A stretch of DNA of 64,000 bases from Patescibacteria group bacterium (GTDB lineage: Bacteria; Patescibacteriota; Patescibacteriia; SG8-24; DYFX01): positions 231,412 to 295,411 of the forward strand of contig JBAZZB010000002.1 in NCBI GenBank assembly GCA_041659045.1, in the 5' to 3' direction. The notes beneath the pieces were generated by a model. The model saw nothing but the letters and a program-made list of their open reading frames with translations, did not search any database and was not told the origin of the DNA. Of this stretch, positions 13,533-64,000 are shown piece by piece. Position numbers and translations under genes: made by a program. How positions within the stretch are numbered: the stretch's first letter is position 1; each line of letters opens with the position of its first letter.

Positions 13533-14176
13533 TCTTCTTCCTCCTCTCCATCACGATCGACTTCGTGCAAGTAGCGCGAGATCTTGATCGGACCGACACC
13601 CTTGCCGAACGTCTCGTGTGGGAAGCGCACTTGCACCGCCTGGTCCCGATCGTTGGGCTGGTAGGCGTCCCAGGTAATGCCGCGCGGCAGAAAGCCTTCG
13701 AGCACTTGGCGCAGAAAGTTGTACTGAGGCTCATCAAACGGGTCGGTCATGCCGTCGCGCATCATGACGTACAGCACCGGCGTCGGATCAAGTTCGTCCC
13801 AGTTGAGGTCGTAGTCCGTCAGGCAATTGATCATCGGCCCGTTCAGGCTGTCATGCCCAAGCAGGTAGAGATCGATCATAAACGGACCAAAGTACACCGA
13901 GCAGCAGAGTGGAACCGCGTCGAACCGCGTGATCTTGCAATCATCGTAGATGTAATCGATCGCGGCGTAGCTCTCGTCCCCAAACGGGTGCTCCCCATCT
14001 TCAAACGCAAAGGCGTAGGTGGGAGGCTCGCTGTTCGGGAAACGCATCATGGCGCGCTGGTAGAGCGTCCGAAGGATGGCAAACGCCACTTCGATAACCT
14101 TCGGCAGATCGAACTTCGGGCCGTCGGCAATGACCGTGTCATTGTCGAGTTCGCGGAGCTTCTTCAGCATGATCAC
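13529..14176 (-). CDS. hypothetical protein, tandem paralog A (C-terminal RFPHETFGKGVGPIKI, poly-Glu tail)
   Basis: 215 aa. The start is preceded by AAAGGAG. It is a paralog of the downstream ORF. Confidence 0.5.
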   Translation of the reverse strand: MIMLKKLRELDNDTVIADGPKFDLPKVIEVAFAILRTLYQRAMMRFPNSEPPTYAFAFEDGEHPFGDESYAAIDYIYDDCKITRFDAVPLCCSVYFGPFMIDLYLLGHDSLNGPMINCLTDYDLNWDELDPTPVLYVMMRDGMTDPFDEPQYNFLRQVLEGFLPRGITWDAYQPNDRDQAVQVRFPHETFGKGVGPIKISRYLHEVDRDGEEEEE

Positions 14177-14216
14177 TCCTTTGTCTAAGGTGCCGCGTCC
14201 AGCATCGTCTCCTCCG

Positions 14217-14245
14217 CTTGAAACGTCAAGAGATTACAGGTACTT
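14217..14245 (+). promoter_or_regulatory. smc promoter (TTGAAA-N17-TACTTT)
   Basis: The sequence reads TTGAAAcgtcaagagattacaggTACTTT. It is divergent from the promoter of the minus-strand paralog pair. Confidence 0.45.
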
Positions 14246-14270
14246 TAAGGAGGTAATAGCCGCTTTCCCC

Positions 14271-16577
14271 ATGTATCTCCAGCGCATCGAAATGCAGGGT
14301 TTCAAGACGTTCGCCAACCGCACGGTTTTGGAATTCCTCCCCCCGAAAGAAGGCAACCGCGGCACAACCGCGATCGTCGGCCCGAACGGCTCCGGTAAGT
14401 CGAATATCGCTGACGCTGTCCGTTGGGTGCTGGGCGAGCAATCGCTCAAGCTCCTGCGCGGTAAAAAATCGGAAGACGTCATTTTTAGCGGCTCCGAAAA
14501 ACGCTCGCGCTCCGGGTTCGCCGAAGTCTCCTTGGCACTCAACAACGAAGCGGGCGGCAACGATATTGAATATCCGGAAGTTGTCATCACGCGCCGTATC
14601 TACCGCGACGGCGAATCGGAATACCTCATCAACAAGAACAAGGTGAAGCTGCAGGAAGTCATCCTGCTTCTTGCACGCGCCAACTTCGGACAGCGCACCT
14701 ACTCCGTCATCGGCCAAGGCATGATCGATGCGATCCTCGTCGCTTCGCCGAAAGAGCGCAAGGAGTTTTTCGATGAAGCTGCGGGCGTGAAGCAGTATCA
14801 ACTCAAGCGCGAATCCGCCGTCCGCAAGCTCGATGCTTCGGAAGAAAACTTGAAGCAGGCCGAACTCATCCTCGCCGAAATCGAACCGCGCATGCGTTCG
14901 CTCTCGCGCCAGGTCCGCCGCTTGGAAGAGCGCGCCAATCTTGAAAAAGAATTGCAGGAACTTTCAATCCTCTACTTCGGCACGCAGTGGAAACAGATTA
15001 GGGAAGAGATGGCCGCAATCGACGCCAAAACGAAGCTCGTCGAAGAAAGCCGCAAAGCCAAGGAAAAGGAAATCGAAGCCATCCGCGCCGAGCTCGCCGG
15101 CATGGAAACAGAAGAAACGAAATCCGACGGCTTGATCGCACTCCAGAAGGACTACGAGAAAGAGATGGAAAAGCGCAACAGTTTGCGCGAGAAAGAAATC
15201 CAGCTCAAGAACCAAATTCGGATGGAGCAGATGAAGGCACAGGCGGCCAACGCACCGGCGCTGCCCATGCCACTCCCCCGCATCGTCGAAGAAGTTTCCT
15301 CGATCTCAAAGCGTCACGACGAACTTGTCGCCTCGATCATGGGCGCGAAAACGCTCGAGCAGGCGCAGCAAGCGGCGCGCGAACTTGAAAAGCTCGGCAA
15401 GCAAATTGAAGAACTGCTCTCGGAACTCCGCGAACCCGGCCACAAGGAAAAGCAGGAAAAGAAGGAACCAACGGTTCCGGTTGCGATGCAAAAGGAGCTC
15501 GAGGAAACGCTCGTCGCCATCTCCGAAATGGGTAAAACGCTGACGGACCTTCAAGGCCAAATGCAGCGTTGGGGCCAGGAAGAGGCCAAAAAGCGTGGTG
15601 CCTTCTTCGAGATTCAGCGCAAGATGCAAGGCTTCCAGTCAGAACTCTTCGAACTCGACCGTCACCTCTCCGACCACCGTGTCGAACGCGCGCGCATCGA
15701 AACCCGCCGCGAAACCATCGAGCGCGAAGCGCGCGAAATGATGGGTGAGGAAGCTCAAGCCGCGCTTGCCGCCGAACCGAAAGAGAAGGTCGACGCATTA
15801 ACTCTCTCCCCTCGCCTCCACCAACTCCGCACGCAAGTCGCCGCGATCGGCTCGATCGATCAAGCCGTCGTCGACGAATATAAGGAGATCAAAGAACGCT
15901 TCGACTTCCTCTCCGGACAAGTCGAAGACCTGCACAAAACGAAAGCTTCTCTTGTGGTGATGATCGAAGAGCTCGACATTCTGATCAAGAAACAATCGGA
16001 CGCATCGTTCCGTCGCATCAACCAGCACTTCGGAGAATTCTTCAAACAACTCTTCGACGGCGGCACCGCTTCGCTTGAGAAAATCGAGCGCGAAGAGGAT
16101 GAAGATGAAGTCGCCGATGCCGAAAAAGCGGCCGCCGCGGAAGCTGCAGGCGTCGAAGAGGAAGAAAAGAAGGAGGCCGTCTCCGCCGTGCCGAAAGAGT
16201 CCTGGCTCGGTCTCGAAATTTACGCGAACCCTCCGGGCAAGCGCGTGAAGTCGATCCATTCACTCTCCGGCGGCGAGCGCGCCATGACATCGATCGCGCT
16301 TATCTGCGCCATCATGACGACGAACCCTTCGCCCTTCGTAGTGCTCGACGAAGTCGACGCCGCGCTCGACGAATCGAACGCCTCGCGCTTCGCTGCGATC
16401 ATCGACGAACTCTCTCACAAGACGCAGTTCCTCGTGATCACGCACAACCGCTACACGATGCAGAAGTCGCAAGTGCTCTACGGCGTCACTATGGGTGAAG
16501 ATTCAACATCGAGCGTTCTCTCGCTCCAGCTCGAAGACGCGGAACGCATTCGCGGACAGAAAACCGTAACGGTGTAA
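14271..16577 (+). CDS. smc: SMC-family chromosome segregation ATPase, unusually short (768 aa) with a reduced coiled coil and no evident hinge
   Basis: The N-terminus MYLQRIEMQGFKTF...IVGPNGSGKSNIADAVRWVLGEQS carries the Walker A motif. The C-terminus LSGGERAMTSIALICAI...FVVLDEVDAALDE carries the signature and Walker B motifs. The upstream 65 codons of the track ORF are likely not translated. Confidence 0.75.
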   Translation: MYLQRIEMQGFKTFANRTVLEFLPPKEGNRGTTAIVGPNGSGKSNIADAVRWVLGEQSLKLLRGKKSEDVIFSGSEKRSRSGFAEVSLALNNEAGGNDIEYPEVVITRRIYRDGESEYLINKNKVKLQEVILLLARANFGQRTYSVIGQGMIDAILVASPKERKEFFDEAAGVKQYQLKRESAVRKLDASEENLKQAELILAEIEPRMRSLSRQVRRLEERANLEKELQELSILYFGTQWKQIREEMAAIDAKTKLVEESRKAKEKEIEAIRAELAGMETEETKSDGLIALQKDYEKEMEKRNSLREKEIQLKNQIRMEQMKAQAANAPALPMPLPRIVEEVSSISKRHDELVASIMGAKTLEQAQQAARELEKLGKQIEELLSELREPGHKEKQEKKEPTVPVAMQKELEETLVAISEMGKTLTDLQGQMQRWGQEEAKKRGAFFEIQRKMQGFQSELFELDRHLSDHRVERARIETRRETIEREAREMMGEEAQAALAAEPKEKVDALTLSPRLHQLRTQVAAIGSIDQAVVDEYKEIKERFDFLSGQVEDLHKTKASLVVMIEELDILIKKQSDASFRRINQHFGEFFKQLFDGGTASLEKIEREEDEDEVADAEKAAAAEAAGVEEEEKKEAVSAVPKESWLGLEIYANPPGKRVKSIHSLSGGERAMTSIALICAIMTTNPSPFVVLDEVDAALDESNASRFAAIIDELSHKTQFLVITHNRYTMQKSQVLYGVTMGEDSTSSVLSLQLEDAERIRGQKTVTV

Positions 16578-21088: not shown

Positions 21089-21178
21089 ACCCCCGTTCGC
21101 GCCCCGCATACGCAGGGCGAGCTGCAGAACCGCGGGAAGCTCTCACCCCGCGTTTCTCATACGTTTTATCTCATACCA

Positions 21179-21472
21179 ATGTTGTCCATCCGCCTCTCCC
21201 GCGTCGGCAAAAAGAAGATGCCGTCCTACCGCCTGATCGTCACCGAAAAAACCCGCGACCCGTGGGGCAAGGTGCTCGAACAGCTCGGCACGTACGACCC
21301 GCTCTCCAAGCCACGCAAAATCGCGTTCGACATCGAGCGCGTAAAGTACTGGATGTCGAAGGGCGCTCAACCGTCCGCGACCGTCCATAACATGCTCGTC
21401 GATCTCAAAGCGATCGAAAGCGAAAAAACCAAGGCGCACCCGACTCACAAAGTCACCGCCGAGGAAAAGTAA
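21179..21472 (+). CDS. rpsP: 30S ribosomal protein S16
   Basis: 97 aa. The N-terminus MLSIRLSRVGKKKMPSYRLIVTEKTRDPWGKVLEQLGTYDPL matches bS16. No Shine-Dalgarno sequence is visible. Confidence 0.9.
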   Translation: MLSIRLSRVGKKKMPSYRLIVTEKTRDPWGKVLEQLGTYDPLSKPRKIAFDIERVKYWMSKGAQPSATVHNMLVDLKAIESEKTKAHPTHKVTAEEK

Positions 21473-42898: not shown

Positions 42899-45052
42899 AT
42901 GACCAAGCAGTTCTCGCTTGAATGGGGCGGTAAAACGCTCTCTGTTGAGATTGGCAAAATTGCCAAGCAGGCCAACGGTTCGTGCACGGTGCGCTACGGC
43001 GACACCGTCGTGCTCGTCACCGCCACGATGAGCTCCGGCTCGCGCGACGGCATCGATTTTCTTCCGCTCTCGGTTGAGTGTGAAGAACGTTTGTACGCCG
43101 CAGGAAAAATTAAGTCCTCGCGCTTCTTGAAGCGTGAAGGTCGTCCGACCGATGATGCCATTGTCGTCGGCCGCATGATCGATCGCTCGATTCGTCCGCT
43201 CTTCGAACAGAAGATCCGCAACGAAATCCAAGTCGTCTTCACGACACTCGCGTTCGATAAGGAAAACGATTACGACATTCCGGCAATGATCGGCACCTCG
43301 ATCGCGGTCGGTATGTCTGATATTCCGTGGGCCGGTCCGGTCGCGGGTATCCGCGTCGGTCGCGTCGGTACGGAGTGGGTCATCAACCCGTCGTACGAAG
43401 CGCGCGAGAAGAGCGACCTCGACGTTGTCATTGTCGGCACACCGACGCACACGACGATGGTCGAAGCGGAGAGTAGCGAAGCGAAAGAAGAAGACGTGAT
43501 GGCCGGCATGCGTTTCGGCGCGAAGCATCTTTCCGAAGTCCAGGCCTTCATCGAAAAAATTATCACCGAGGTCGGCAAGCCGAAGCGTTCGGTTAACGAC
43601 CTGATCGGCATCGATGAAGAAACCGCGAAAGAAAAAGAGGCGTTAATCGCCAAATCGCGCGAATTCATTTTCCCGAAAATCCGCGAGTATCTTTTCGCCA
43701 CGCCGAAAGCGACGAAAGTCGAACGCCGCGAAGCGAAGTCCGCACTCGCACACACGCTCGATGAATACTTGAAGACCGAACAGGTCGGCAAGGACAAGCG
43801 CAAATGGGCGCTCGACGCGATGCAGAAATGGGTTGAGGAAGTCGTCTCGCAGATCATCTTGGACGAAGGCAAACGCTGCGACGGCCGCGCGCTCGACGAA
43901 ATTCGCGAGCTTTCCGCCGAAGTTGCGCTGCTTCCGCGCGTTCACGGTTCCGGCCTGTTTTCTCGAGGTGAAACGCAGATCCTCTCGACCGTCACTTTGG
44001 GTGCCCCGTCCGATGTCCAGCTGGTCGACAGCATGGAGTTCGACGAAAAGCGCCGCTACTTCCACCACTACAATTTCCCTCCGTACTCTGTCGGCGAAAC
44101 GGGCCGCTTCGGCGGTGGCGGACGCCGCGAAGTTGGTCACGGTGGTCTTGCTGAACGCGCATTGATCCCAGTGCTCCCCGCGAAAGAAGATTTCCCGTAC
44201 ACGATCCGCGTTGTCTCCGAGACACTCGGTTCGAACGGTTCCTCCTCGCAGGGTTCCATCTGCGGCTCGACGCTCGCGCTCATGGACGCCGGTGTACCGA
44301 TCAAGAAACCGGTGGCGGGCATCGCGATGGGTATCGCAACTGATCCGAACGACATCAACCGCTACAAGATCATCACCGACCTCCAAGATTTGGAAGACGG
44401 CGCTGGCGGTATGGACTTCAAGATCGGCGGTACGCGCGACGGCATCACTTCGATTCAGATGGACACCAAGACGAAAGGCCTCACTTGGCAGATCGTCGAA
44501 GAGACGCTGACGAAAGCGAAAGCCGCGCGCTTGCAGATTCTTGATGTCATGGCGAAAGCGATCGCGACACATCGTCCGGAACTTTCTCCGTACGCGCCGC
44601 GCATCATCATCATCAAGATCAATCCGGAACTCATCCGCAACGTCATCGGTCCCGGCGGCAAAGTCATCAACGACATCATCGAAAAAACTGGCGTGCAGAT
44701 CGAAGTCGAAAACGACGGCACGGTCACGATTACCTCCGCCAACCTCGAAGGCCTCGAAGCCGCGAGGAAACGCGTCGAGGATCTCACGCGTGAACTCAAG
44801 CCTGGCGAATTCTTCCCTTCCGGCAAAGTCACGCGCATTCTCGACTTCGGCGCATTCGTCGAAGTCCTGCCCGGTCAGGAAGGCATGGTCCACATCAGCG
44901 AGCTCGACACGAAGCGCGTCGAGAAAGTCACGGACGTCGTGAAGGTCGGCGATATCATCCCAGTCGTCGTCATCAAGATTGACGAGCTGGGCCGCGTCAA
45001 CCTAAGCTTGAAGCGCGCTAAGGAGAAACTGAATGGCACTGCTTCCCAATAA
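42899..45052 (+). CDS. pnp: polyribonucleotide nucleotidyltransferase (PNPase)
   Basis: 717 aa with two RNase PH domains plus C-terminal KH and S1 domains (..KPGEFFPSGKVTRILDFGAFVEV..). Confidence 0.95.
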   Translation: MTKQFSLEWGGKTLSVEIGKIAKQANGSCTVRYGDTVVLVTATMSSGSRDGIDFLPLSVECEERLYAAGKIKSSRFLKREGRPTDDAIVVGRMIDRSIRPLFEQKIRNEIQVVFTTLAFDKENDYDIPAMIGTSIAVGMSDIPWAGPVAGIRVGRVGTEWVINPSYEAREKSDLDVVIVGTPTHTTMVEAESSEAKEEDVMAGMRFGAKHLSEVQAFIEKIITEVGKPKRSVNDLIGIDEETAKEKEALIAKSREFIFPKIREYLFATPKATKVERREAKSALAHTLDEYLKTEQVGKDKRKWALDAMQKWVEEVVSQIILDEGKRCDGRALDEIRELSAEVALLPRVHGSGLFSRGETQILSTVTLGAPSDVQLVDSMEFDEKRRYFHHYNFPPYSVGETGRFGGGGRREVGHGGLAERALIPVLPAKEDFPYTIRVVSETLGSNGSSSQGSICGSTLALMDAGVPIKKPVAGIAMGIATDPNDINRYKIITDLQDLEDGAGGMDFKIGGTRDGITSIQMDTKTKGLTWQIVEETLTKAKAARLQILDVMAKAIATHRPELSPYAPRIIIIKINPELIRNVIGPGGKVINDIIEKTGVQIEVENDGTVTITSANLEGLEAARKRVEDLTRELKPGEFFPSGKVTRILDFGAFVEVLPGQEGMVHISELDTKRVEKVTDVVKVGDIIPVVVIKIDELGRVNLSLKRAKEKLNGTASQ

Positions 45053-46214
45053 GCTAAGCGGCCTCCAAGCGCTCCTCCTTCTGGGAGGGGCGTTTGTTTT
45101 CGTTGGATTTCTCATTGTCCGTTCATACACGCTGGTCCTCGATACCAGCCCGACGGCCCCGCCTCAGTCTGAAATCGTGCTTTCCATCGTGAAACGCGAT
45201 GAGACGTTTCTGAAGAGCGCCGCCTGGGCAAAGTTCCTCGCCGCGCTTCCAAAAGAAGCCGCTCAGGCACTTTCACAGGCACAAGCCGACCACACAGCAA
45301 CTCTTTTTGCTGTTCGTGGTGAGGACGGCGCCCTCGCTTGGGGTTTGGTTGAAGCACTTAGTACTTCCCGCGGACAAAGCCAGAAACCCCAACGAAAACT
45401 CGTACCTCGTGAGGTCGGGGCCGTGGGTTCATTTAGAGTTGCCGGACAAACTCAGCCGATCCAAGCCTACTTTGAGCCTGAATTGGTACGGTTTGAGATT
45501 GGTCGTGGTTATCGTGGACTTTTGGCCAATCCAGTTCCCTTCACCATGGGCCGCAGGCTTATTCAACCGATCAATCAACAAATCGCTCACCTTGAGAAGC
45601 CGTCCGAGGCCAGCTGGGGGAAAGCACCCGCCTTGTTTCAGTCTACAATGCAGCGTTTTAAGGGCCTTGCTGATCCCTGGACCTGGCCGGGGAGGGTTGA
45701 ACTCGCTGTTAGTGCCTCATCGACCGGGGAGACGCTCTACCCCTTCCTTTTGTTCTATAAACCAACAGTTGGCCAGAAGAATGTGGCCAAACAAACGGAG
45801 GATTTTGCGAGGAATCTGCTTGCTCAGGCGGCCCCGCAGACAGTGCTGGTGAACTTGCCTGACGACAGCCAAATGACCGAATTCCGCCACGATCCTGAAT
45901 CTATCCAAAAGGAGGAGATTCGGAACCAGTTTGGCACCCTTCTGAGGCTCACAGCCCCTGGAAAATCCCAAAGAATGCTGGTGTTTCTGGCGGATGACCA
46001 TGAGGTCTGGATCAGCAACGATCTTGCCCTGATTCAAGCTGGGTTTCTTGATAACGTACAGGCGACAACCCCAAGCTCTGCTTGTGACCGTGACAGCATC
46101 GGCGGTTTTGCCTCACTTTCAGGTCAGAGTTTTTCGTATGGAAGTTTTTCAAGGGTGAATATCTCAATTAATGATATTGAGACCGGGTTATTCACACTCT
46201 GTGGATATTATTGA
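45033..46214 (+). CDS. hypothetical membrane-anchored protein (lower GC, about 50%)
   Basis: 393 aa. The start lies inside the pnp 3' end, preceded by AAGGAG with a 7-nt spacer. It has an N-terminal TM helix. Confidence 0.5.
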   Translation: MALLPNKLSGLQALLLLGGAFVFVGFLIVRSYTLVLDTSPTAPPQSEIVLSIVKRDETFLKSAAWAKFLAALPKEAAQALSQAQADHTATLFAVRGEDGALAWGLVEALSTSRGQSQKPQRKLVPREVGAVGSFRVAGQTQPIQAYFEPELVRFEIGRGYRGLLANPVPFTMGRRLIQPINQQIAHLEKPSEASWGKAPALFQSTMQRFKGLADPWTWPGRVELAVSASSTGETLYPFLLFYKPTVGQKNVAKQTEDFARNLLAQAAPQTVLVNLPDDSQMTEFRHDPESIQKEEIRNQFGTLLRLTAPGKSQRMLVFLADDHEVWISNDLALIQAGFLDNVQATTPSSACDRDSIGGFASLSGQSFSYGSFSRVNISINDIETGLFTLCGYY

Positions 46215-46340
46215 TGGATTTGTGGATAACCTTATCCACTAGAACTCACAGATAATCCACAGTGTTGTGCACAGCGTACCGTAGCCTTAACTGAATAAGC
46301 TCACTTCGCCTTATTTTAATGAGAATATCTATCCACAGAA
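46199..46340. other. DnaA-box cluster (five boxes) with an adjacent AT-rich tract
   Basis: Boxes versus the TTATCCACA consensus: ATATCCACA (reverse complement of 46200-46208), TTATCCACA perfect (reverse complement of 46221-46229), TTATCCACT (46232-46240), TAATCCACA (46253-46261) and CTATCCACA (46329-46337). AT-rich stretches follow at 46300-46380. Confidence 0.5.
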
Positions 46341-46821
46341 CGCAGATTGACCCAAGCCGTTTTTTCAGGTATAGTTATTACAGAGAACGTTGACAACTGA
46401 ATCGCGGAAAGACCACTGAGAGATGCCTACCGAAGCTTAGCTTGGGTGCACATCCCTCTCCCTTACTTTTCTCCTTGCAAAACAAAAATCAAAAGCATCC
46501 TGGTTCTGCCTCAAATATGTCGTGCTTCGGCACTGACCCGAGGATTGGAACCGTTGGAAGGTTGGGGAGGTTGTTCTTTCAGCCCACCGTTGGCTAGTCC
46601 TTCAATCGCTGCGGCGAACAGAAGGCTCAACGCGCGGCACTCAGGAGCTCGAGAGTATTGCGGATTTGTCCTAGCACGTCTTTTACAGGCGTTCTGAGAC
46701 AAATCCGCATACACACTCTCGAGCTTTTTCTTTTGTAGAATACCCGGGTCTGACCCTTGCCATGAACGGGTGGATCCACTATACTTTTACCAAGGCCAGA
46801 AGCCCGTTTTTTTAGAGAAGT

Positions 46822-47187
46822 ATGGACAAGAATACCCTCAAAACACTTGAAGAAAAACTGATCGCGGAGCAGGCTAAGCTCGAAGTTGAGCTGAGCGGCT
46901 TCGCTCAGAGGAATCCTCAGAACGCTGACGATTTCAACGCGGATTTCCCACAACTTGGCGATAAGGAGGATGAAAATGCTTCCGAGGTTGCCGAGTACTC
47001 GAAAGACCTGACGGTTGAGCGCACGCTGGAAGCATCGCTGCGCGACGTGAAGAAAGCGCTCGAGCGCGTTCAGGACGGCACGTACGGCACCTGTAAATAC
47101 TGCAGCAAGGTGATCGACGAGAAGCGCTTAATGGCGCGACCGACATCGACCTCCTGCATCGACTGCAAGAAACTGTTCACGGAATAA
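46822..47187 (+). CDS. dksA: DksA/TraR-family C4 zinc-finger regulator
   Basis: 121 aa. The C-terminal sequence CKYCSKVIDEKRLMARPTSTSCIDC is a C4 zinc finger and the N-terminus is a coiled coil. Confidence 0.7.
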   Translation: MDKNTLKTLEEKLIAEQAKLEVELSGFAQRNPQNADDFNADFPQLGDKEDENASEVAEYSKDLTVERTLEASLRDVKKALERVQDGTYGTCKYCSKVIDEKRLMARPTSTSCIDCKKLFTE

Positions 47188-47193
47188 GCTAAC

Positions 47194-47225
47194 CCCCCCG
47201 ACAACCGTCGGGGGGCTTTGCTATA
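47194..47225 (+). terminator. intrinsic terminator
   Basis: CCCCCCGACaaccGTCGGGGGG is followed by CTTTGCTAT. Confidence 0.55.
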
Positions 47226-47234
47226 CTGGACTCC

Positions 47235-47666
47235 ATGAAACTACAGACGCGTTGGACACTGATCGCAGCAAGCGCCTTTCTTCTCGACCGCCTTTTAAAA
47301 CATCTGGCTCTTTCAGGAGCGCATGCCGGTGGAGACAACGGACTTCTCCGATTCGCACTCTTCCGCAACGACGGCATCGCCTTCAGTCTCCCCTTCTCCG
47401 GACCACTCGTTTGGCTGCTGAGTATCGGGATACTCGCTTTTATCGGGCGCTTGGCGTATAAAGACTTTCGAACCAAGCACTATAAGCGAGCGGAGGCCTA
47501 TCTCTTCTTCGTTCTCGGAGCCTGCAGTAACTTGTTTGATAGAATCGTCTACGGCTTCACAGTCGATTATGCGATCTTCTTCCGCCTTTCAGCCGTGAAC
47601 ATTGCCGACGCAATGATCATTGCCGGGGCGGCCTGGCTTGTCCTAAAGGCTCCTGGAAAGAAATAA
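47235..47666 (+). CDS. lspA: lipoprotein signal peptidase (signal peptidase II)
   Basis: 143 aa with four TM segments. The conserved Asn/Asp motifs (NDGIAFS; FDRIVYGFTVDY; NIADA) are present. Confidence 0.8.
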   Translation: MKLQTRWTLIAASAFLLDRLLKHLALSGAHAGGDNGLLRFALFRNDGIAFSLPFSGPLVWLLSIGILAFIGRLAYKDFRTKHYKRAEAYLFFVLGACSNLFDRIVYGFTVDYAIFFRLSAVNIADAMIIAGAAWLVLKAPGKK

Positions 47667-47670
47667 TTTT

Positions 47671-48039
47671 ATGCCGAATCTTTTTCTCGAAAAATCGATT
47701 GACGTCAACACCCCGGCGGCAAAGGTCTGGAAGCATTTGTGCGAGAAGTACGCTTCTGATTGGGAGGTTGGCTCTTCAATTCAAGGGCGGGGCGCGGATG
47801 GAAAAATCCTGAAGCTGGAGCAGGAAAAGTTGCTGAAGCACAATCTCTTGCGCATGAGCGCTGACGGAGTTGCCACGCTTTCTTCTGTCATTACGTACGA
47901 GCTCCGCGAACACAACGGCATGACCATTCTGGTCGCGAGAGAAAGTTTTGCCGAAGCACAGAGCGACAAGGCATTTACAGAGGCGCTCTCGGGCTGGGAC
48001 GCGACATTGGCTGCCTTAAAGGCCGAAGCGGAGAAATAA
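47671..48039 (+). CDS. SRPBCC-superfamily (AHSA1/Bet v1-like) protein
   Basis: 122 aa. The N-terminus is ..SIDVNTPAAKVWKHL.., typical of the AHSA1/SRPBCC family. Confidence 0.45.
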   Translation: MPNLFLEKSIDVNTPAAKVWKHLCEKYASDWEVGSSIQGRGADGKILKLEQEKLLKHNLLRMSADGVATLSSVITYELREHNGMTILVARESFAEAQSDKAFTEALSGWDATLAALKAEAEK

Positions 48040-48043
48040 AAAA

Positions 48044-48070
48044 CGAGGGGCTTGCCCCTCGTTTTTTTGT
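48044..48070. terminator. bidirectional intrinsic terminator
   Basis: CGAGGGGCttgcCCCTCG is followed by TTTTTTT and preceded by AAAAAA. Confidence 0.6.
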
Positions 48071-48071
48071 A

Positions 48072-48485
48072 CTAGATGCGCTTGTGTGAAAGGACACAGC
48101 CAATCGCATGTGTCACTTTTTTTGAACCTTTTTCATATGCCGGCGCGATGTCCATGACCACATGCGTTTTACTGCCGTTTTTACGAACAAAGTCGTGCGC
48201 AATAGCACTCATCGCGTGCCCTTGGTAAAGATCCAGCAGGTCTTTGAGACCATCGCGAATGCCAGCATTCGCAAGAAGCGTATCGAAACGCGCTCGCGTA
48301 AGTTCCCTGCGATGATACCCCGTCAGTTCAAGAAAAGAATCGTTTGCGAAGATGAATCGCGCGTCTTTATCGAGAACAAAGCAGGGCGTCGGTAAACGTT
48401 TAATCCAAGCAAAAGGCACGGCTTGCAGCACGGCGCGCTTTCTTGTGGTTTGCCTTAAGACATTGATACTACGGGACTTCGGCAT
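48072..48485 (-). CDS. PAS-domain protein
   Basis: 137 aa. The PAS signature is CFVLDKDARFIFANDSFLELTGYHRRELT. Confidence 0.6.
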   Translation of the reverse strand: MPKSRSINVLRQTTRKRAVLQAVPFAWIKRLPTPCFVLDKDARFIFANDSFLELTGYHRRELTRARFDTLLANAGIRDGLKDLLDLYQGHAMSAIAHDFVRKNGSKTHVVMDIAPAYEKGSKKVTHAIGCVLSHKRI

Positions 48486-48526
48486 GTGGGACTGCTATAC
48501 TTCAATGCAAATACAGTAGCAGACCT

Positions 48527-49198
48527 ATGACGAAGCATGAAGGCCATCGGCACGGTTCGACGGACGACACGCAGCACCTGAGCGCTCTTGAACATGCTCA
48601 TGGGCCGCTCCCGCAACTCATGATTGGCGACATCATCTTGGTTCGACACAAGAAGTCGCTCATTCGAAATTTTTTGCGTAAGATCACGAACAGCTATTGG
48701 GACCACGCAGCGCTCGTAATTTTTTCGAGAAACCCCGAGAAGGGCTACTCGAGCAATATTATTGCGGAAGCGATTCAGCATCGTGCCATCGACGCGTGGC
48801 GACGCGGTGTTGAGGTTCATAAAATGGATCGCTACCTCAACGAACCCGACTTGTACGACGTGGGCGTAAAACGTTGCATGGATATCGACGACGAAATTCG
48901 CGACCATGTGCGCGCATTCACGCTTATGAACGTCGACGCTCCGTATTATCGTCTTCCTCTCGCAGACCTCGCGCTCGCGTCTGTCTCGCGCGTCATTCGG
49001 AAGTTTGTCCTCAAGCGCCAACGATTCACATGCAGTGGCTTGATCCAAAAAGCCTATTGGAATGCGGCGCCGTGGGAGAGAAGGCATGGTTTTGCTTTCC
49101 GTGATTTTGGCGATTCGCCGATTGAACTGCAGGAACTTGTTTCGCCGGGCGATATCGCAAAAAGCGATGTCTGCGCGTGGATTTGGAATCGCCACTGA
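48527..49198 (+). CDS. permuted papain-like (YiiX/C92-like) protein, tandem paralog 1
   Basis: The motifs YWDHAALVI and FTCSGLIQKAYW (a permuted His...Cys pair) are present. It shares the C-terminal SPGDIAKS motif with the next ORF. Confidence 0.45.
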   Translation: MTKHEGHRHGSTDDTQHLSALEHAHGPLPQLMIGDIILVRHKKSLIRNFLRKITNSYWDHAALVIFSRNPEKGYSSNIIAEAIQHRAIDAWRRGVEVHKMDRYLNEPDLYDVGVKRCMDIDDEIRDHVRAFTLMNVDAPYYRLPLADLALASVSRVIRKFVLKRQRFTCSGLIQKAYWNAAPWERRHGFAFRDFGDSPIELQELVSPGDIAKSDVCAWIWNRH

Positions 49199-49199
49199 T

Positions 49200-49835
49200 A
49201 TGCACGTCGGTCGATATTCCGATATCAGGAGCGCGATGCGAAATCTGCAAGTCGCCGATATCATTCTCACGCGCACGAAAAACGCGAACTGGCTCTTGAG
49301 AGGCATTCGTAATGTCAGCCGTTCCCATTGGAATCACAGCGCTCTTGTTTTCCAAGTTGTTCATCAAGAAGACGCGGATCCGGAGGTACTGATCGTGGAA
49401 GCGCTTGATCATGGCATAGAAATCCATCGTCTACACAACTACCTCGACTCTAAGGAATTCGACATCGGTATCAAACGCATCCCGAACCTTACAGAGTCGG
49501 AGCGCGAACGTATCCTTGCCTACTTTCTAGAGAACATTGATACGCCGTACGATTTCACGAGACTCTTCGGATACGTGCTCAATCGCGCGGCGCTGAAAAT
49601 TGCAGGCGTGAGGATTCGCGACATGGTGGCGCAAAGGATCATCAACATCGACAACTTTGTTTGTTCCACGTTCACGCAGCGCGCGTTTTACCTTGGCGTC
49701 TCGCCCGACAAACGTGATCGCGTCATGTTTAAAGAGGGCGCTGATACGAACTTTCTCTACCAACTCGAGTTCATCTCTCCGGGAGACATTGCGAAGAGTA
49801 CCAACACCGACTGGCTCTACAACCCACACGAATGA
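49200..49835 (+). CDS. permuted papain-like (YiiX/C92-like) protein, tandem paralog 2
   Basis: The start MHVGRY lies 1 nt after the upstream stop. The motifs HWNHSALVF, FVCSTFTQRAFY and SPGDIAKS are present. The terminator CCCCTTGcgtgctgCAAGGGG plus T5 follows. Confidence 0.45.
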   Translation: MHVGRYSDIRSAMRNLQVADIILTRTKNANWLLRGIRNVSRSHWNHSALVFQVVHQEDADPEVLIVEALDHGIEIHRLHNYLDSKEFDIGIKRIPNLTESERERILAYFLENIDTPYDFTRLFGYVLNRAALKIAGVRIRDMVAQRIINIDNFVCSTFTQRAFYLGVSPDKRDRVMFKEGADTNFLYQLEFISPGDIAKSTNTDWLYNPHE

Positions 49836-49881
49836 GCGAACCCCTTGCGTGCTGCAAGGGGTTTTTGGTAGGGCGCTTCAT

Positions 49882-51399
49882 ATGCCTGCCAATATTCTTT
49901 CTGCCGCTTTGATCGGCGTCGACGCTGCGCCAATCGAAATTGAATCGGACGTTGCTAACGGCCTGCCCGCTTTCGTGATTGTCGGCTTGCCGGACGCCGC
50001 TGTCCAAGAGGCACGTGATCGCGTAAAGACTGCGCTCAAGAACAGCGGCTTCTCGTTTCCTCGAACTCGCCTGACCGTAAACCTTGCGCCGGCTGATCTT
50101 CGAAAAGCCGGACCGGCGTTCGATTTACCGATAGCGGTTTCCATCATGGTCGGGTCTGGAGAGCTGAAGTATGAGGCCGTGCAGGGCGCGCTCTTTCTCG
50201 GCGAACTCGCGCTCGACGGCTCGCTCCGTCCCGTCGCCGGAGTCTTGGCGGCCACTCTTCTCGCGAAAAAACTTGGTGCGACGCGTATCTTTGTGCCAAA
50301 AGAAAACGCGAGCGAGGCAGCGCTTGTGCCGAACATTCAAGTTTTTGGCGTGCCAACACTCTCCGTGCTTGCCGAGCATCTGCACGGCATACACGTGTTT
50401 GAGCCGCATCACGCGACGGAGCCAGCTGACGATGACGTGGGTGAAAGCGGGTATGACTTCGCGTCGATTGCCGGGTTAGAGCAAGCAAAACGAGCGCTGG
50501 AAATCGCCGCGGCGGGTGGTCATAATATTCTTCTCTCCGGTAGTCCGGGCGCGGGCAAAACTCTTCTCGCGCGTTCGATTCCATCGATCTTGCCGCGCAT
50601 GACGTATGAGGAGGCGCTTGAAGCGACAAGAATCCATAGCGTTGCGCATCTTCTACCGCGTTCGTCCCCTCTCTTGCAGTCACGTCCCTGGCGCGCGCCG
50701 CACCATACGGCAAGTACCGCGGCGATCATCGGCGGCGGTACAAATCCGCACCCAGGCGAAGTCACGCTCGCGCACCGTGGAGTTCTCTTTCTTGATGAGT
50801 TTCCAGAATTCCCGAGGCCCGTGCTTGAAGGTTTGCGACAGCCTCTTGAAGATCGACGCGTGACGGTCAGCCGTGCTTCTGGCACTTTGGAATTCCCCGC
50901 GTCGTTCATGCTCGTGGCCGCGCGCAATCCTTGTCCTTGCGGTTTTTTTGGCGACCCTGAACGCGCTTGCGTCTGCACACCATCATCACTCGAACGCTAC
51001 CGCAAGAAGATCTCCGGCCCGCTTCTTGATCGTATTGATCTCTACGTGGAAGTACCGCGCACACCGTACGAAAAACTCGCAGCAGCTGGAGAAGCGGAAA
51101 CATCGTTTGTCGTGCGAGGTCGTGTCAGCGCGGCAAGAGACGCGCAATCACGCCGCAATGCTTTTTTCGGAGCAATTACCAACGCGGATATTCGCGGCCG
51201 TGATCTTAAAAAGATATGCGTGATTCCGCGTGAGGCCGAGACGCTTTTGCTCGCCGCTTCCAAAGCACTGCATCTTTCGCCGCGCGCTATTCATCGCTGT
51301 CTCAAAGTCGCGCGCACGATTGCAGACCTCGCTGAACGAGAACGTATCGAAACTCCAGACGTCGCCGAAGCGTTGCAGTATCGACCGAAGCAGGAATAA
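49882..51399 (+). CDS. yifB: YifB/ComM-family Mg-chelatase-like AAA+ ATPase
   Basis: 505 aa. It has an N-terminal Lon-like domain, Walker A (LLSGSPGAGKT), Walker B (VLFLDEFPEF) and a C-terminal domain. The upstream part of the track ORF is not coding. Confidence 0.85.
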   Translation: MPANILSAALIGVDAAPIEIESDVANGLPAFVIVGLPDAAVQEARDRVKTALKNSGFSFPRTRLTVNLAPADLRKAGPAFDLPIAVSIMVGSGELKYEAVQGALFLGELALDGSLRPVAGVLAATLLAKKLGATRIFVPKENASEAALVPNIQVFGVPTLSVLAEHLHGIHVFEPHHATEPADDDVGESGYDFASIAGLEQAKRALEIAAAGGHNILLSGSPGAGKTLLARSIPSILPRMTYEEALEATRIHSVAHLLPRSSPLLQSRPWRAPHHTASTAAIIGGGTNPHPGEVTLAHRGVLFLDEFPEFPRPVLEGLRQPLEDRRVTVSRASGTLEFPASFMLVAARNPCPCGFFGDPERACVCTPSSLERYRKKISGPLLDRIDLYVEVPRTPYEKLAAAGEAETSFVVRGRVSAARDAQSRRNAFFGAITNADIRGRDLKKICVIPREAETLLLAASKALHLSPRAIHRCLKVARTIADLAERERIETPDVAEALQYRPKQE

Positions 51400-60640: not shown

Positions 60641-61474
60641 ATGAAATTCGGCGCACACGTATCGGCCGCAGGCGGCCTTTGGAACGCCCCGGAAAACGCA
60701 GCGAAGGTCGGCTGCGAGATTTTCCAATTCTTTTCTCGCCCACCCCAGGGAGGCAACGCAGCAGCAATCACGCCGGAGGTCGCCAAGAAATTCCGCGACG
60801 CCTGCGAGAAGTATGAGCAGGAACTTTGGGTCATCCACGCGCCCTACATCATCAACTTCGCCTCGACGACGGAACGCATCCGAAACGGCTCCATTCGCAT
60901 CATTCGGGAAGAACTGGAGCGCGGGTCGACCCTGGGTGCTCGCGCCGTCATGTTCCATCCGGGCTCCGCGCGGGACGTTCCACTCTCTGAGGGTATTCGG
61001 ATGGTCGCAGACGGCGTGAACGAACTCCTCAAAGGCTATAAAGGCACCACGCAGCTTTTGATTGAAATCTCGGCGGGTAGCGGTTCCGTCATCGGCGATA
61101 CCTTCGATGAGGTTCGCGACATTCTGAAGCTCGTCAAAAGCGAGAACGTCGGCGTCTGTTTCGATACGGCCCACGCGTTCGCTTCCGGTTACGATTTGCG
61201 TGACAAGAAGGCCGTGGCAGCCACCTTTGACGCTTTCGACAAGGAAGTCGGGCTCGAACGGCTCGTGATGTCTCATTGCAACGATTCCAAAGTGGAGCTT
61301 GGCGCCAAGAAAGATCGACACGATTTCTTAGGCGATGGCCATATCGGTCTAGGTGGTTTTAAAGAGATGTTGGCCGACAAAAGACTCTCCAACCTCTTCT
61401 GGGTTGTCGAAACGCCCCCTGAGGGTCAGGAAGCTGACATCAAAAAGCTCAAAAAGATCCGCGCTTCGCTATGA
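60641..61474 (+). CDS. nfo: endonuclease IV (AP endonuclease, Nfo)
   Basis: 277 aa starting MKFGAHVSAAGGL. The Xyl-isomerase-like TIM barrel carries the Nfo His/Asp/Glu metal ligands. The upstream 87 codons of the track ORF are not coding. Confidence 0.85.
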   Translation: MKFGAHVSAAGGLWNAPENAAKVGCEIFQFFSRPPQGGNAAAITPEVAKKFRDACEKYEQELWVIHAPYIINFASTTERIRNGSIRIIREELERGSTLGARAVMFHPGSARDVPLSEGIRMVADGVNELLKGYKGTTQLLIEISAGSGSVIGDTFDEVRDILKLVKSENVGVCFDTAHAFASGYDLRDKKAVAATFDAFDKEVGLERLVMSHCNDSKVELGAKKDRHDFLGDGHIGLGGFKEMLADKRLSNLFWVVETPPEGQEADIKKLKKIRASL

Positions 61475-61725
61475 GCATTTTGAGCGTAAAGGTTATCCCC
61501 AAAAGTGGTCGTACTGAGCTCAAGTTTGAGGGGGAATTACTCAAAGTTTGGCTCAAATCCGCACCTGAGGATGGAAAGGCAAATGATGAATTAGTGCGAA
61601 TATTAGCAAAGAAATTGGATATTTCTCGTGCGCATGTGGAAATTCTCCACGGGAAATCCACAAGAAATAAAACTGTGGATATCACGGGGATAAGTATGGA
61701 GGAAATGAAAAAGACCCTTGCTTAA
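61471..61725 (+). CDS. DUF167 (YggU/UPF0235) protein
   Basis: 84 aa. MSILSVKVIPKSGRTELK...LKVWLKSAPEDGKANDELVRILAK is the DUF167 signature. It forms an ATGA overlap with nfo. Confidence 0.7.
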   Translation: MSILSVKVIPKSGRTELKFEGELLKVWLKSAPEDGKANDELVRILAKKLDISRAHVEILHGKSTRNKTVDITGISMEEMKKTLA

Positions 61726-62482: not shown

Positions 62483-62489
62483 TATTTAG

Positions 62490-62640
62490 CTAATATTAGC
62501 GATTTATGAATCCACACCCCTGTGGGGATGGGAGAAGTTATCAACAGGTTACCAACACTTTGATTTTTTGTGAAGCATTTGTGGGGATAGTTGCTCACCT
62601 GTGGATGATGTTGTAGGCTTTGATCAGTGTTTTTTAATTT
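62490..62640. promoter_or_regulatory. rpmH-dnaA divergent intergenic region with degenerate DnaA boxes and AT-rich tracts
   Basis: The candidate boxes are TGAATCCACA (62507), TTATCAACA (62536), TCATCCACA (reverse complement of 62600-62608) and two TATCCCCACA-like sites (reverse complements near 62520 and 62580). The AT-rich runs are TTGATTTTTTGTG and TGTTTTTTAATTTT. Confidence 0.4.
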
Positions 62641-62649
62641 TCCCCGCGT

Positions 62650-64000
62650 ATGACCACGCACGAGCTGTGGCAAGCCGCCCTCGGCGAGCTTGAACTGTCC
62701 CTGTCGAAAGCGAACTACACAACCTGGTTCCGAAACACCTTTATTTCGACATTCGACGACGGCCGTATCGTGGTTTCCGTTCCGAATACGTTTACAAAAG
62801 CTTGGCTCGAGAAGAAGTATCACACGGCGATCCTCAAAGCCCTCCAGAACGTCGCAAAGGAAGGGGCTCGCGAAGTGCACTATAAGGTTGAGTTGAAGCC
62901 TTCGGCTCCTCAGGACATTATTACTTCCGTTGGTGCAGCCCCGACCGTTGCGTCTGTCGCCCCGAGTCAGGCCGCGCATCAAGAAGAAGAGGTCGCAGAG
63001 GGTAGCAAGGATTTTAGTTTGAATCCCCGCTACACGTTTGAACACTTTATTGTCGGTAAAACCAACGAATTGGCGCACGCGGCGGCCCTCGCGGTTACCG
63101 AAAAGCCCGGTCGCTACAACCCGCTCTTCATTTACGGCGGTGTCGGTCTCGGAAAAACGCACCTTTTGCAGGCAATCGGCCACAAAATGGTCGAAATGAA
63201 CCCGCGCACAAAGGTTCTTTACGTTACCTGTGAACGTTTCACCAACGAATTCATTCACGCCGTCCGTAATGGTCGCGGCAAGGAATTCAAGGACACCTAT
63301 CGTGGCCTCGACCTGCTTTTGATCGACGACATTCAGTTCATCACCGGTAAAGAAGGCACACAGGAGGAGTTTTTCCATACCTTCAATGCTCTTCACCAGT
63401 CGAACAAGCAGATCATCATGAGCTCCGACCGCGCTCCGAAGGCCATTCAGGGTATTGAGCAGCGCCTCGTTTCACGTTTCGAATGGGGCATGATGGTCGA
63501 TATCAGCACGCCGGACCTCGAAACCCGCGTTGCCATTCTTGAATCGAAGTGCAAGGAAAAACACTACGAAATTCCGCGCGAAATCCTTTCCTACGTTGCC
63601 AGCGCCATTCAGTCGAACGTGCGTGAATTGGAAGGCACCCTCAACAAGATCATCGCCTACCATCAGTTCAAAAACCTGAAACCGAGTCTCGAAACGGTGC
63701 GCGAGCTCGTTTCGACGATAAACAACGCGGCTGGAACCAAAAAGAACCTCACTCCGAAGGATCTTTTGGATACCGTTGCCAACTACTACGATATTGCCGT
63801 GGCTGATTTGCTCGGAAAGTGCCGTGAAAAAAGGCTTTCATTCCCCCGCCAGATCATCATGTACCTCATGCGCGAGGAGCTCAGCTCTTCGTACCCTTCT
63901 ATCGGTAAGATGATTGGTGGCCGCGATCACACGACGGCAATTCACGCCTACACGAAAATTGTCGCCGATATTCAGGAGGACGAAAAGCTTCGCCACGACC
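62650..64000 (+). CDS. dnaA: chromosomal replication initiator DnaA (3' end beyond the window)
   Basis: The sequence begins MTTHELWQAALGELELSLSKANYTTWF and includes the AAA+ Walker A motif GGVGLGKTHLLQAIGH and the sensor regions. The frame is open to the end of the window. Confidence 0.95.
   Translation, partial: MTTHELWQAALGELELSLSKANYTTWFRNTFISTFDDGRIVVSVPNTFTKAWLEKKYHTAILKALQNVAKEGAREVHYKVELKPSAPQDIITSVGAAPTVASVAPSQAAHQEEEVAEGSKDFSLNPRYTFEHFIVGKTNELAHAAALAVTEKPGRYNPLFIYGGVGLGKTHLLQAIGHKMVEMNPRTKVLYVTCERFTNEFIHAVRNGRGKEFKDTYRGLDLLLIDDIQFITGKEGTQEEFFHTFNALHQSNKQIIMSSDRAPKAIQGIEQRLVSRFEWGMMVDISTPDLETRVAILESKCKEKHYEIPREILSYVASAIQSNVRELEGTLNKIIAYHQFKNLKPSLETVRELVSTINNAAGTKKNLTPKDLLDTVANYYDIAVADLLGKCREKRLSFPRQIIMYLMREELSSSYPSIGKMIGGRDHTTAIHAYTKIVADIQEDEKLRHD

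Follow-up and report, generated by a model that had tools for sequence, protein, structure and literature searches.

The locus considered here raises the question of what a dense cluster of DnaA boxes does some 16 kb away from dnaA, in a window of 64,000 nt (the whole stretch of DNA that was analysed) from a Patescibacteria genome of the Candidate Phyla Radiation (CPR) with ~57% G+C. The initial annotation placed the boxes between a pnp-associated gene and dksA, and this location was borne out, as the cluster is flanked by an open reading frame (ORF) of 393 amino acids, ORF393, and by a gene for a DksA/TraR-family protein, with dnaA 16.4 kb away. It offered three explanations, namely an origin of replication (oriC) displaced from dnaA, a site that regulates DnaA in the manner of datA or a DnaA-reactivating sequence (DARS), or a DnaA-controlled promoter. 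We lean towards an interpretation along the lines of the latter two, in which the cluster is a non-origin, origin-proximal group of DnaA boxes that would couple the transcription of an adjacent RNA gene to DnaA and would also titrate DnaA.

Both strands of the window were searched for TTATCCACA with at most one mismatch, which gave 13 matches in 64 kb compared with ~5 expected. Six boxes of this quality, one of them perfect and both strands being represented, lie together with one two-mismatch box at 46188-46337. They are box a (46188-46196, + strand, TTATTCACA), box b (46200-46208, − strand, ATATCCACA), box c (46221-46229, − strand, TTATCCACA), box d (46232-46240, + strand, TTATCCACT), box e (46253-46261, + strand, TAATCCACA), the weak box e' (46265-46273, + strand, TTGTGCACA) and box f (46329-46337, + strand, CTATCCACA). 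Box c is the sole perfect box of the 64-kb window; boxes a, b, d, e and f carry one mismatch each, and box e' carries two, or one when it is compared with TTATNCACA. The successive starts are 12, 21, 11, 21, 12, and 64 bp apart, that is, near whole helical turns. Boxes a and b form a convergent pair with a 3-bp gap and are contained in the last codons of ORF393 (F-T-L-C-G-Y-Y-stop), boxes c and d stand back to back (divergent) with a 2-bp gap, and 9 bp separate box f from the −35 hexamer of the promoter of the RNA gene. No 150-bp window in 100 Markov simulations held more than two matches, and the Poisson probability of at least six matches in 150 bp, given the local base composition, is 7.5e-13. 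The one perfect and four one-mismatch boxes on both strands that had been reported initially were all found, within 138 bp, and the sixth, at 46188, begins just outside the range reported for them. With six boxes, the simulations and the Poisson probability, the clustering is thus confirmed and slightly stronger than first noted.

Stable DnaA binding has been predicted in Bacillus subtilis from four successive boxes with at most one mismatch to TTATNCACA and an index of affinity and spacing, A, above 0.3, a threshold that separated eight stable DnaA-binding regions from the rest of that genome (Ishikawa et al., PMC2533591). Published values of A are 0.94 for rpmH-dnaA and 0.36-1.64 for the non-origin clusters of B. 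subtilis (PMC2533591). The index was 1.05 for 46188-46240 and likewise for 46221-46273. Elsewhere in 69.9 kb, a length obtained by extending the window with the identical Logan contig L001 (7015-base overlap, 0 mismatches), the best value was ~0.01, as it was at the dnaA flanks. Stable binding of DnaA at the cluster is therefore plausible as a prediction. The full DnaA protein, taken from L001, can be aligned over its whole length with that of B. subtilis (E = 7e-121). The residues that specify TTATCCACA according to Ishikawa et al. (PMC2533591) are intact in its domain IV, namely the base-reading segment GGRDHTTAIHA (RDHTT..H) and the arginine of PRQ.

Related loci were collected through PNPase, with one genome per species, and 12 further loci through DnaA. 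Nine close relatives had a locus reaching past pnp (L003-L007, L009, L012, L050, and L065), and the distant relatives comprised a group with PNPase identities of 55-60%, annotated either as Uhrbacteria or as Patescibacteria. The box cluster occurs at the same offset from pnp in all nine close relatives. Box b is invariant in nine of nine as TGTGGATAT, box c is kept in eight of nine, the ATCCACA of box e is retained in seven of nine, and box f is found in six to seven of nine, once inverted. The codons ACA, TGT, GGA, and TAT, which hold the synonymous positions of box b, are invariant in the nine relatives, in an ORF with a protein identity of 35-67% and GC-rich third positions, and this freezing of synonymous sites suggests selection on the DNA itself.

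In the distant relatives, two perfect boxes TGTGGATAA occupy the equivalent place with a spacing of exactly 31 bp in 11 of 11 loci, often followed 2-3 bp further on by a third perfect, inverted box, and the perfect 9-mers persist at the locus in relatives that give no tblastn match to ORF393. A TTGTNCACA / TTGAACACA motif recurs at the relative position of box e' in both clades. The layout of the inverted pair differs by lineage, being convergent or divergent with gaps of 2-35 bp (9-35 bp in some lineages). It is divergent as TGTGGATAA-N2-3-TTATCCACA in L023, L025, L028, and L061 and as TGTGGATAT-N3-TTATCCACA in L030, and convergent as TTATTCACA-4-TGTGGATAA in L019, L020, and L034 and as TTATCAACA-4-TGTGGATAA in L049; further variants of the module were seen in L015, L018-L020, L030, L034, L044, L049, and L064. 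A single DARS-like geometry was considered and set aside, as none is conserved across lineages. In two other cases, L015 and the merged contig L007+L072, the cluster lies 9-13 kb from dnaA. Judged from these alignments, the box cluster, kept in nine close and more than 11 distant genomes, is deeply conserved across many Patescibacteria, its ancestral module is one of two or three boxes, and the six-box array is specific to the clade of the window.

The boxes stand directly upstream of a promoter in every lineage aligned and never in a promoter-free spacer. In the window, this is a sigma-70-type promoter on the + strand (46347-46375, TTGACC-17-TATAGT, 10 of 12 consensus matches), written in full as GATTGACC-17-GGTATAGT, in which GATTGAC and GGTATA(G/C)T are invariant in nine of nine close relatives; distant relatives have promoters of the TTGAC-17-TATTAT type at the equivalent place. 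A separate promoter of the dksA-like gene (46757-46785, + strand, TTGCCA-17-TATACT) lies further downstream, with CTTGCC and TATACT conserved in close relatives. The notion of a DnaA-controlled promoter is thus upheld in that a conserved promoter adjoins the boxes; it needs correction in that this promoter drives a structured RNA and not dksA directly. The initial annotation also described AT-rich stretches beside the boxes that could serve as an unwinding element. The tract exists, as 46262-46400 is 59% AT compared with 42% for the window, and its richest 30-mer, at 77% AT, is tied with many others in the window. As far as its sequence can be read, the supposed unwinding tract is a terminator-like hairpin followed by the conserved promoter. 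The hairpin, read from the sequence at 46294-46320 on the + strand (AATAAG...CTTATTTT), is AT-rich, ends in a T-run and would be a weak terminator-like element for the upstream ORF. Its stem covaries in relatives, for example as AATAAGCC-TAAAC-GGGCTTATTTT in L005, and counterpart hairpins occur in distant relatives; a consensus terminator scan did not call it.

The gene downstream of this promoter encodes an unclassified, conserved structured RNA of ~350 nt (46382-46735, + strand), the start of which was placed from the −10 hexamer and the end at the T-run, TTTTTCTTTT, that follows a long hairpin at 46646-46725. RNAalifold, applied to the ~350 nt of nine relatives, gave 98 pairs, 33 of which showed compensatory double changes and few of which were broken. 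A covariance model of the central arm (46449-46580) matched over its full length at 21 loci, 10 of them close and 11 distant, in each case on the same strand and between the boxes and dksA. In the alignment of the arm, 91% of the cells pair, whereas shuffled controls reach 74% and slid controls 32-49%. Double changes are seen at 24 of 37 pairs; these figures come from an alignment fitted to the model, and the margin is large. A long purine/pyrimidine helix surrounds a conserved A-rich single strand (CAAAACAAAAAUCAAAAGC). No Rfam 15 family, including RNase P, transfer-messenger RNA (tmRNA), signal recognition particle (SRP) RNA and 6S RNA, matched the RNA of the window at the gathering score. 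When three divergent versions (from the window, L025, and L019) were searched at E up to 10, the only Rfam 15 matches were scattered, weak and unrelated (E ≥ 0.07, far below the gathering score). The covariation, the promoter and the terminator, along with the absence of an Rfam match, indicate that the gap holds an unclassified structured RNA gene and not an unwinding element.

Known identities were considered and rejected for this RNA. ARAGORN reported no tRNA or tmRNA at the RNA gene, and by eye the RNA has neither the tRNA-like end nor the tag frame of a tmRNA. The same inspection by eye showed no conserved P4-type GGAAAGUCC/ACAGAA pair, an ACAGAA-like stretch being variable and located in a local hairpin, and neither the domain IV motif of SRP RNA nor a 6S-like central bubble. 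In L018, L019, L020, L034, L049, L044, L064, and L030, the RNA escaped the covariance models R1 and R2; as a visual impression only, L019, L049, L018, and L044 share a pyrimidine strand, an A-rich loop and a purine strand. The RNA is present in at least two Patescibacteria clades, and probably in more. In L004, a ~2-kb insertion (13900-15940) lies between the RNA and dksA, and the boxes remain beside the RNA. In L015, the RNA gene is absent and two perfect boxes persist before dksA. Pairing between the A-rich loop (ACAAAAAUCAAAAG) and a T-rich element of the rpmH-dnaA spacer (62558-62572, CTTTGATTTTTTGTG) was also considered and dropped for lack of covariation, since the loop differs among genomes in which the spacer motif does not change at all; the near-complementarity of CTTTGATTTTTTGTG to the loop is probably a coincidence of low complexity. 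Literature searches yielded nothing specific on structured RNAs of the CPR.

Whether the cluster could be the origin depends on what is found at dnaA. The dnaA gene (62650-64000, + strand) is cut by the end of the window, and the 261-bp spacer between dnaA and dnaN lies just past it. The basal unwinding system has been defined as a DnaA box with no more than two mismatches that is followed, after a spacer no longer than 16 bp, by three or more NAN DnaA-trios (3'-NAN-5', consensus 3'-GAT-5') (Pelliciari et al., PMC8287927). A module of this kind, TTATCCACG-cgc-TTA CTG TTA CTT CTG, is present at 64246-64304 on the extended scale (L001 7261-7319), 246 bp beyond the window and 18 kb from the box cluster. 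Its other strand reads 3'-AAT GAC AAT GAA GAC-5', a run of five triplets, each with the adenine that DnaA-trios have at their centre. Right after the trios and directly upstream of dnaN comes TATATCTATATATTTTTAAACAAATAGAAT, which at 90% AT is the most AT-rich 30-mer in 69.9 kb. The block GGTTATCCACGCGCTTACTGTTACT is the best-conserved portion of the dnaA-dnaN spacer in close relatives, and more distant relatives have textbook modules with tandem boxes, such as TTGTCCACC TTATCCACC tcc CTA CTA CTA TTA TTG followed by an AT tract. This arrangement of box, GC spacer and trios fits the definition of Pelliciari et al. (PMC8287927), and the complete module with its AT-rich tract was found at dnaA-dnaN only. 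At the cluster, a scan for DnaA-trios found no run of more than four NTN triplets after any box, the sole four-triplet run overlapping box b, and no outstanding AT tract beside the boxes (maximum 77% AT, ordinary).

The rpmH-dnaA spacer (62484-62649, no strand assigned) had been credited with weaker boxes, and indeed contains one-mismatch boxes at 62538 (TTATCAACA) and 62600 (TCATCCACA) as well as two-mismatch ones. These boxes are conserved in 13 relatives, and the spacer is probably the upstream box arm of the origin together with the dnaA promoter. About 1 kb from rpmH, two one-mismatch boxes (61493-61501 and 61674-61682) lie 181 bp apart inside a DUF167/YggU-like gene (61471-61725), and pairs with the same spacing occur in L068 (3705/3886), L069 (5200/5381), and L070 (8812/8993); this pair may be an outlying part of the box field of the origin. 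L084 has four one-mismatch boxes at 1147-2583, 8-9 kb upstream of dnaA and near the cumulative-skew minimum of that locus (2343), and additionally has a textbook unwinding module at dnaA-dnaN. L082, a distant relative, contains a 58-bp perfect palindrome (21155-21212) whose ends are two perfect boxes (21155/21204), just downstream of a tRNA gene and ~10 kb from dnaA. These boxes were rejected as a counterpart of the cluster, being the unrelated ends of a palindrome beside a tRNA.

In the window, bulk GC skew stays below zero nearly everywhere and shows plateaus. Since it was uninformative, GC skew was taken at the four-fold degenerate sites of called genes, and a coding-strand term was separated from a chromosome-strand term. 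The skew of + and − strand genes was −0.221 and 0.000, respectively, to the left of 46.3 kb and −0.194 and +0.063 to the right, an equal difference between the strands on either side. The strand term is −0.11 to the left and −0.13 to the right. A model with a switch at 46.3 kb fitted with a sum of squared errors of 198, compared with 153.5 for no switch and 145.6 for the best model, with a switch at 64.2-65.5 kb. The initial suggestion of an origin at the cluster called for a GC-skew minimum there. Computed over 69.9 kb, the cumulative G-C minimum falls instead at 64913, downstream of dnaA. Among the relatives, the strand term across the dnaA-dnaN spacer rises in 11 of 12 loci, L070 being the one where it stays equal, and in 9 of 12 it turns from negative to positive (means of −0.079 before and +0.101 after), and the cumulative-skew minimum lies within ~1.3 kb of the spacer in seven loci. 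A cumulative minimum at the box cluster was seen in none of 20 related loci. The sign of the skew is equal on the two sides of the cluster in the 13 distant loci that share the box module; in the seven of them with a clearly non-zero, computable strand term (L015, L016, L017, L021, L025, L027, and L058), this term is negative on both sides. The strand term may partly reflect expression-linked codon bias, yet the change of sign that it shows at dnaA-dnaN is in keeping with the module present in that spacer. A comparison of four-fold-site skew between pnp and comM in 28 genomes was not used, since pnp is strongly C-biased everywhere and the comparison is confounded by the codon bias of a highly expressed gene. 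The evidence, good though indirect, argues that the replication origin is the canonical dnaA-dnaN spacer and not the 46-kb cluster.

The following scenario is proposed for the cluster. DnaA may form a stable multimeric complex on the cluster boxes, and DnaA bound at box f, centred near −49, together with the array behind it would modulate RNA polymerase at the promoter of the RNA gene. Synthesis of the RNA would thereby track, in one direction or the other, how much DnaA is present or which nucleotide it carries, and hence the replication cycle. As the site is 18 kb from oriC, it would be duplicated right after initiation and would thereby also soak up DnaA, like the B. subtilis clusters. The retention of the boxes beside the RNA in L004, in spite of the insertion before dksA, speaks for this scenario. 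Several points weigh against it. The whole case is drawn from sequence. The distance from the nearest strong box to the −35 hexamer varies, being ~9 bp in the window, ~10 bp in L044 and 70-130 bp in the Uhrbacteria-like genomes. Often the two are also separated by a terminator-like hairpin, an arrangement looser than a classical operator. The boxes without RNA in L015 imply that boxes are not strictly tied to the RNA promoter, and an ancestral module of two or three boxes implies a small titration capacity there. Furthermore, the strand term of the close relatives to the right of the cluster is about zero and not clearly negative, from few genes and with noise.

The same boxes could instead serve the DnaA cycle alone, in the manner of datA, DARS or the DnaA-box clusters of B. 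subtilis; such an element would titrate DnaA, or alter its nucleotide state once the site has been replicated, and would be adjacent to a promoter only incidentally. The density and affinity of the boxes, expressed in the index A of 1.05, would suit such an element, as would the persistence of boxes without RNA in L015 and the location 16-18 kb from dnaA and oriC here and 9-13 kb in L015 and L007+L072, an origin-proximal placement typical of B. subtilis clusters and of the enrichment of DnaA boxes near oriC in Escherichia coli. The pairs TTATTCACA-3-TGTGGATAT (boxes a and b), TTATTCACA-4-TGTGGATAA and TTATCAACA-4-TGTGGATAA resemble boxes I and II of DARS1. However, the ancestral module has just two or three boxes, no single DARS-like core is conserved under the lineage-specific pair geometries, and the boxes always lie directly upstream of the promoter. 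Considering L004, L015 and the variable distance between boxes and promoter, we regard promoter control as somewhat probable and a pure DnaA-cycle element as a possibility of lesser weight; since B. subtilis clusters also regulate neighbouring genes, the two are compatible. The remaining alternatives appear much less probable. In one of them, DnaA bound where the pnp-ORF393 unit ends would act as a roadblock or terminator and insulate the RNA gene from read-through, without an effect on the promoter. This idea draws on boxes that span the stop codon of ORF393 and precede the weak AT-rich terminator-like hairpin in several lineages. It seems improbable, as box f and the nearest box in L044 abut the −35 hexamer downstream of the hairpin, and an orientation-dependent block needs no boxes on both strands.

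A displaced chromosomal origin, or an auxiliary part of a split origin, would account for the densest and best DnaA-box cluster in 70 kb, for a non-coding, relatively AT-rich region of ~600 bp with a conserved length, and for the shift of the bulk GC skew from about −0.03 towards 0 near 46 kb in the window and in close relatives. Yet the cluster has neither a trio array nor an outstanding AT tract, the ~600-bp spacer is occupied by a promoter, a structured RNA and terminators, the strand term is unchanged at 46.3 kb and a switch model there fits much worse, the sign of the skew is alike on the two flanks of the cluster in the 13 distant loci, none of the 20 related loci has its minimum there, and a complete, conserved unwinding module is present at dnaA-dnaN, so that we consider this alternative very unlikely. 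With module and skew minimum both at dnaA-dnaN, the earlier proposal of a displaced oriC is not supported. Least probable of all is that the boxes are not a DnaA site and that the motif is kept by coding constraint on ORF393 or by another protein, as could be thought from the position of boxes a and b within conserved C-terminal codons. Against this, four or five of the boxes lie outside coding sequence, box b does not vary even at synonymous positions, perfect 9-mers persist in distant relatives without a match to ORF393, the same 9-mer occurs at the dnaA flanks, and the reading residues of DnaA are conserved. As far as can be told from sequence, the earlier alternative of a datA/DARS-like site or a DnaA-controlled promoter is supported, given the conserved boxes, the value of A and the adjoining conserved promoter.

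Around the cluster, the gene order is rpsO, a gene with an NYN domain, pnp, ORF393, a 608-bp non-coding gap, the dksA-like gene, lspA (PF01252) and a comM-like gene, and the ~600-bp gap is conserved in length among relatives. ORF393 (45033-46214, + strand), identified by ORF calling, follows pnp and belongs to no Pfam family in a Pfam search. The DksA/TraR-family zinc-finger protein of 121 amino acids is encoded at 46822-47187 on the + strand (PF01258, 27.4 bits compared with a cut-off of 24.9). The interval 45000-50000 has a lower G+C content (0.51 compared with 0.58). Two adjacent paralogous Peptidase_C92-like genes (48527-49198 and ~49236-49835, the latter with a longest ORF start at 49062) are present in L005, L006, L050, and L065 and absent from L003, L007, L009, and L012, which marks a variable patch. 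Of the 62 genes called to the left of the inferred origin, ~45 (~70%), among them rpsO, pnp, tig and two tRNAs, occupy the + strand and point towards the origin; they are thus head-on to the replication fork, which is unusual for bacteria. In L018, L020, L049, and L064, the pnp-dksA block has a positive skew and appears co-directional.

The literature search retrieved nothing on DnaA boxes or replication origins of Patescibacteria. The textbook unit of box, DnaA-trios and AT-rich tract before dnaN would extend the evidence for the basal unwinding system to the CPR. Because the best box cluster lies 18 kb from the real unwinding module, origin callers that count boxes would misplace oriC in these genomes. 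Furthermore, the deeply conserved non-origin DnaA site points to a specific target, an abundant-looking unclassified RNA beside a DksA-like gene. If DnaA does control this RNA, the locus would offer a simple handle on the coupling of replication and gene expression in these organisms. A further, bolder step is more tentative: the boxes might place this widely conserved ~350-nt RNA under the direct control of the replication initiator, making it a replication- or cell-cycle-coupled riboregulator of bacteria with reduced genomes, a new RNA class and a new kind of target of the DnaA regulon.

Compared with a canonical oriC with the basal unwinding system (PMC8287927), the cluster shares the DnaA boxes only. 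It is without DnaA-trios, an AT-rich unwinding tract or a skew switch, whereas the dnaA-dnaN spacer has all three. In E. coli, datA lies ~470 kb from oriC, requires a site for IHF for its function and promotes the hydrolysis of DnaA-ATP. Like datA, the cluster is a non-origin site with about five boxes, is adjacent to an RNA gene and would be replicated after initiation; it has, however, no sequence homology to datA, the RNA neighbour of which is the glyV-X-Y tRNA operon (PMC10950094). The function of DARS1 and DARS2, with a core of three boxes including an inverted pair, has been demonstrated in E. coli (PMC4585315). The arrangement TTATTCACA-3-TGTGGATAT of boxes a and b resembles TTATCCACT-5-TGTGGATAA of boxes I and II of DARS1, as read from the E. 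coli K-12 sequence, and a DARS-like role of this pair is possible; unlike in DARS, the geometry of the pair varies across Patescibacteria lineages and is divergent in the Uhrbacteria-like group. The autoregulation of dnaA is one example of a DnaA-regulated promoter. Others are those of sda, ywlC and yydA in B. subtilis (PMC2533591) and mioC in E. coli (PMC4585315). As at such promoters, the boxes stand immediately before a sigma-70-type promoter, with box f 9 bp from the −35 hexamer; unlike at these, the target is an unclassified ~350-nt RNA and the distance between boxes and promoter varies by lineage.

The closest likeness is to the non-origin DnaA-box clusters of B. subtilis at gcp-ydiF, yqeG-sda, ywlC-ywlB, ywcI-vpr, yydA-yycS and thdF-jag (PMC2533591). 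As in these, at least four boxes are packed together, at least one of them is perfect, and A, at 1.05, is within 0.36-1.64; the cluster is intergenic on a promoter, near oriC and conserved among related species, and a neighbouring gene is plausibly regulated by DnaA while the cluster buffers the initiator, as is predicted here. It differs from them in that it occurs in Patescibacteria, the adjacent gene is that of a structured non-coding RNA and not a protein gene, two boxes are within the coding end of the upstream gene, and DnaA binding is a prediction. The kind of element is thus already known, and what is new is the host phylum, the depth of conservation and the partner RNA.

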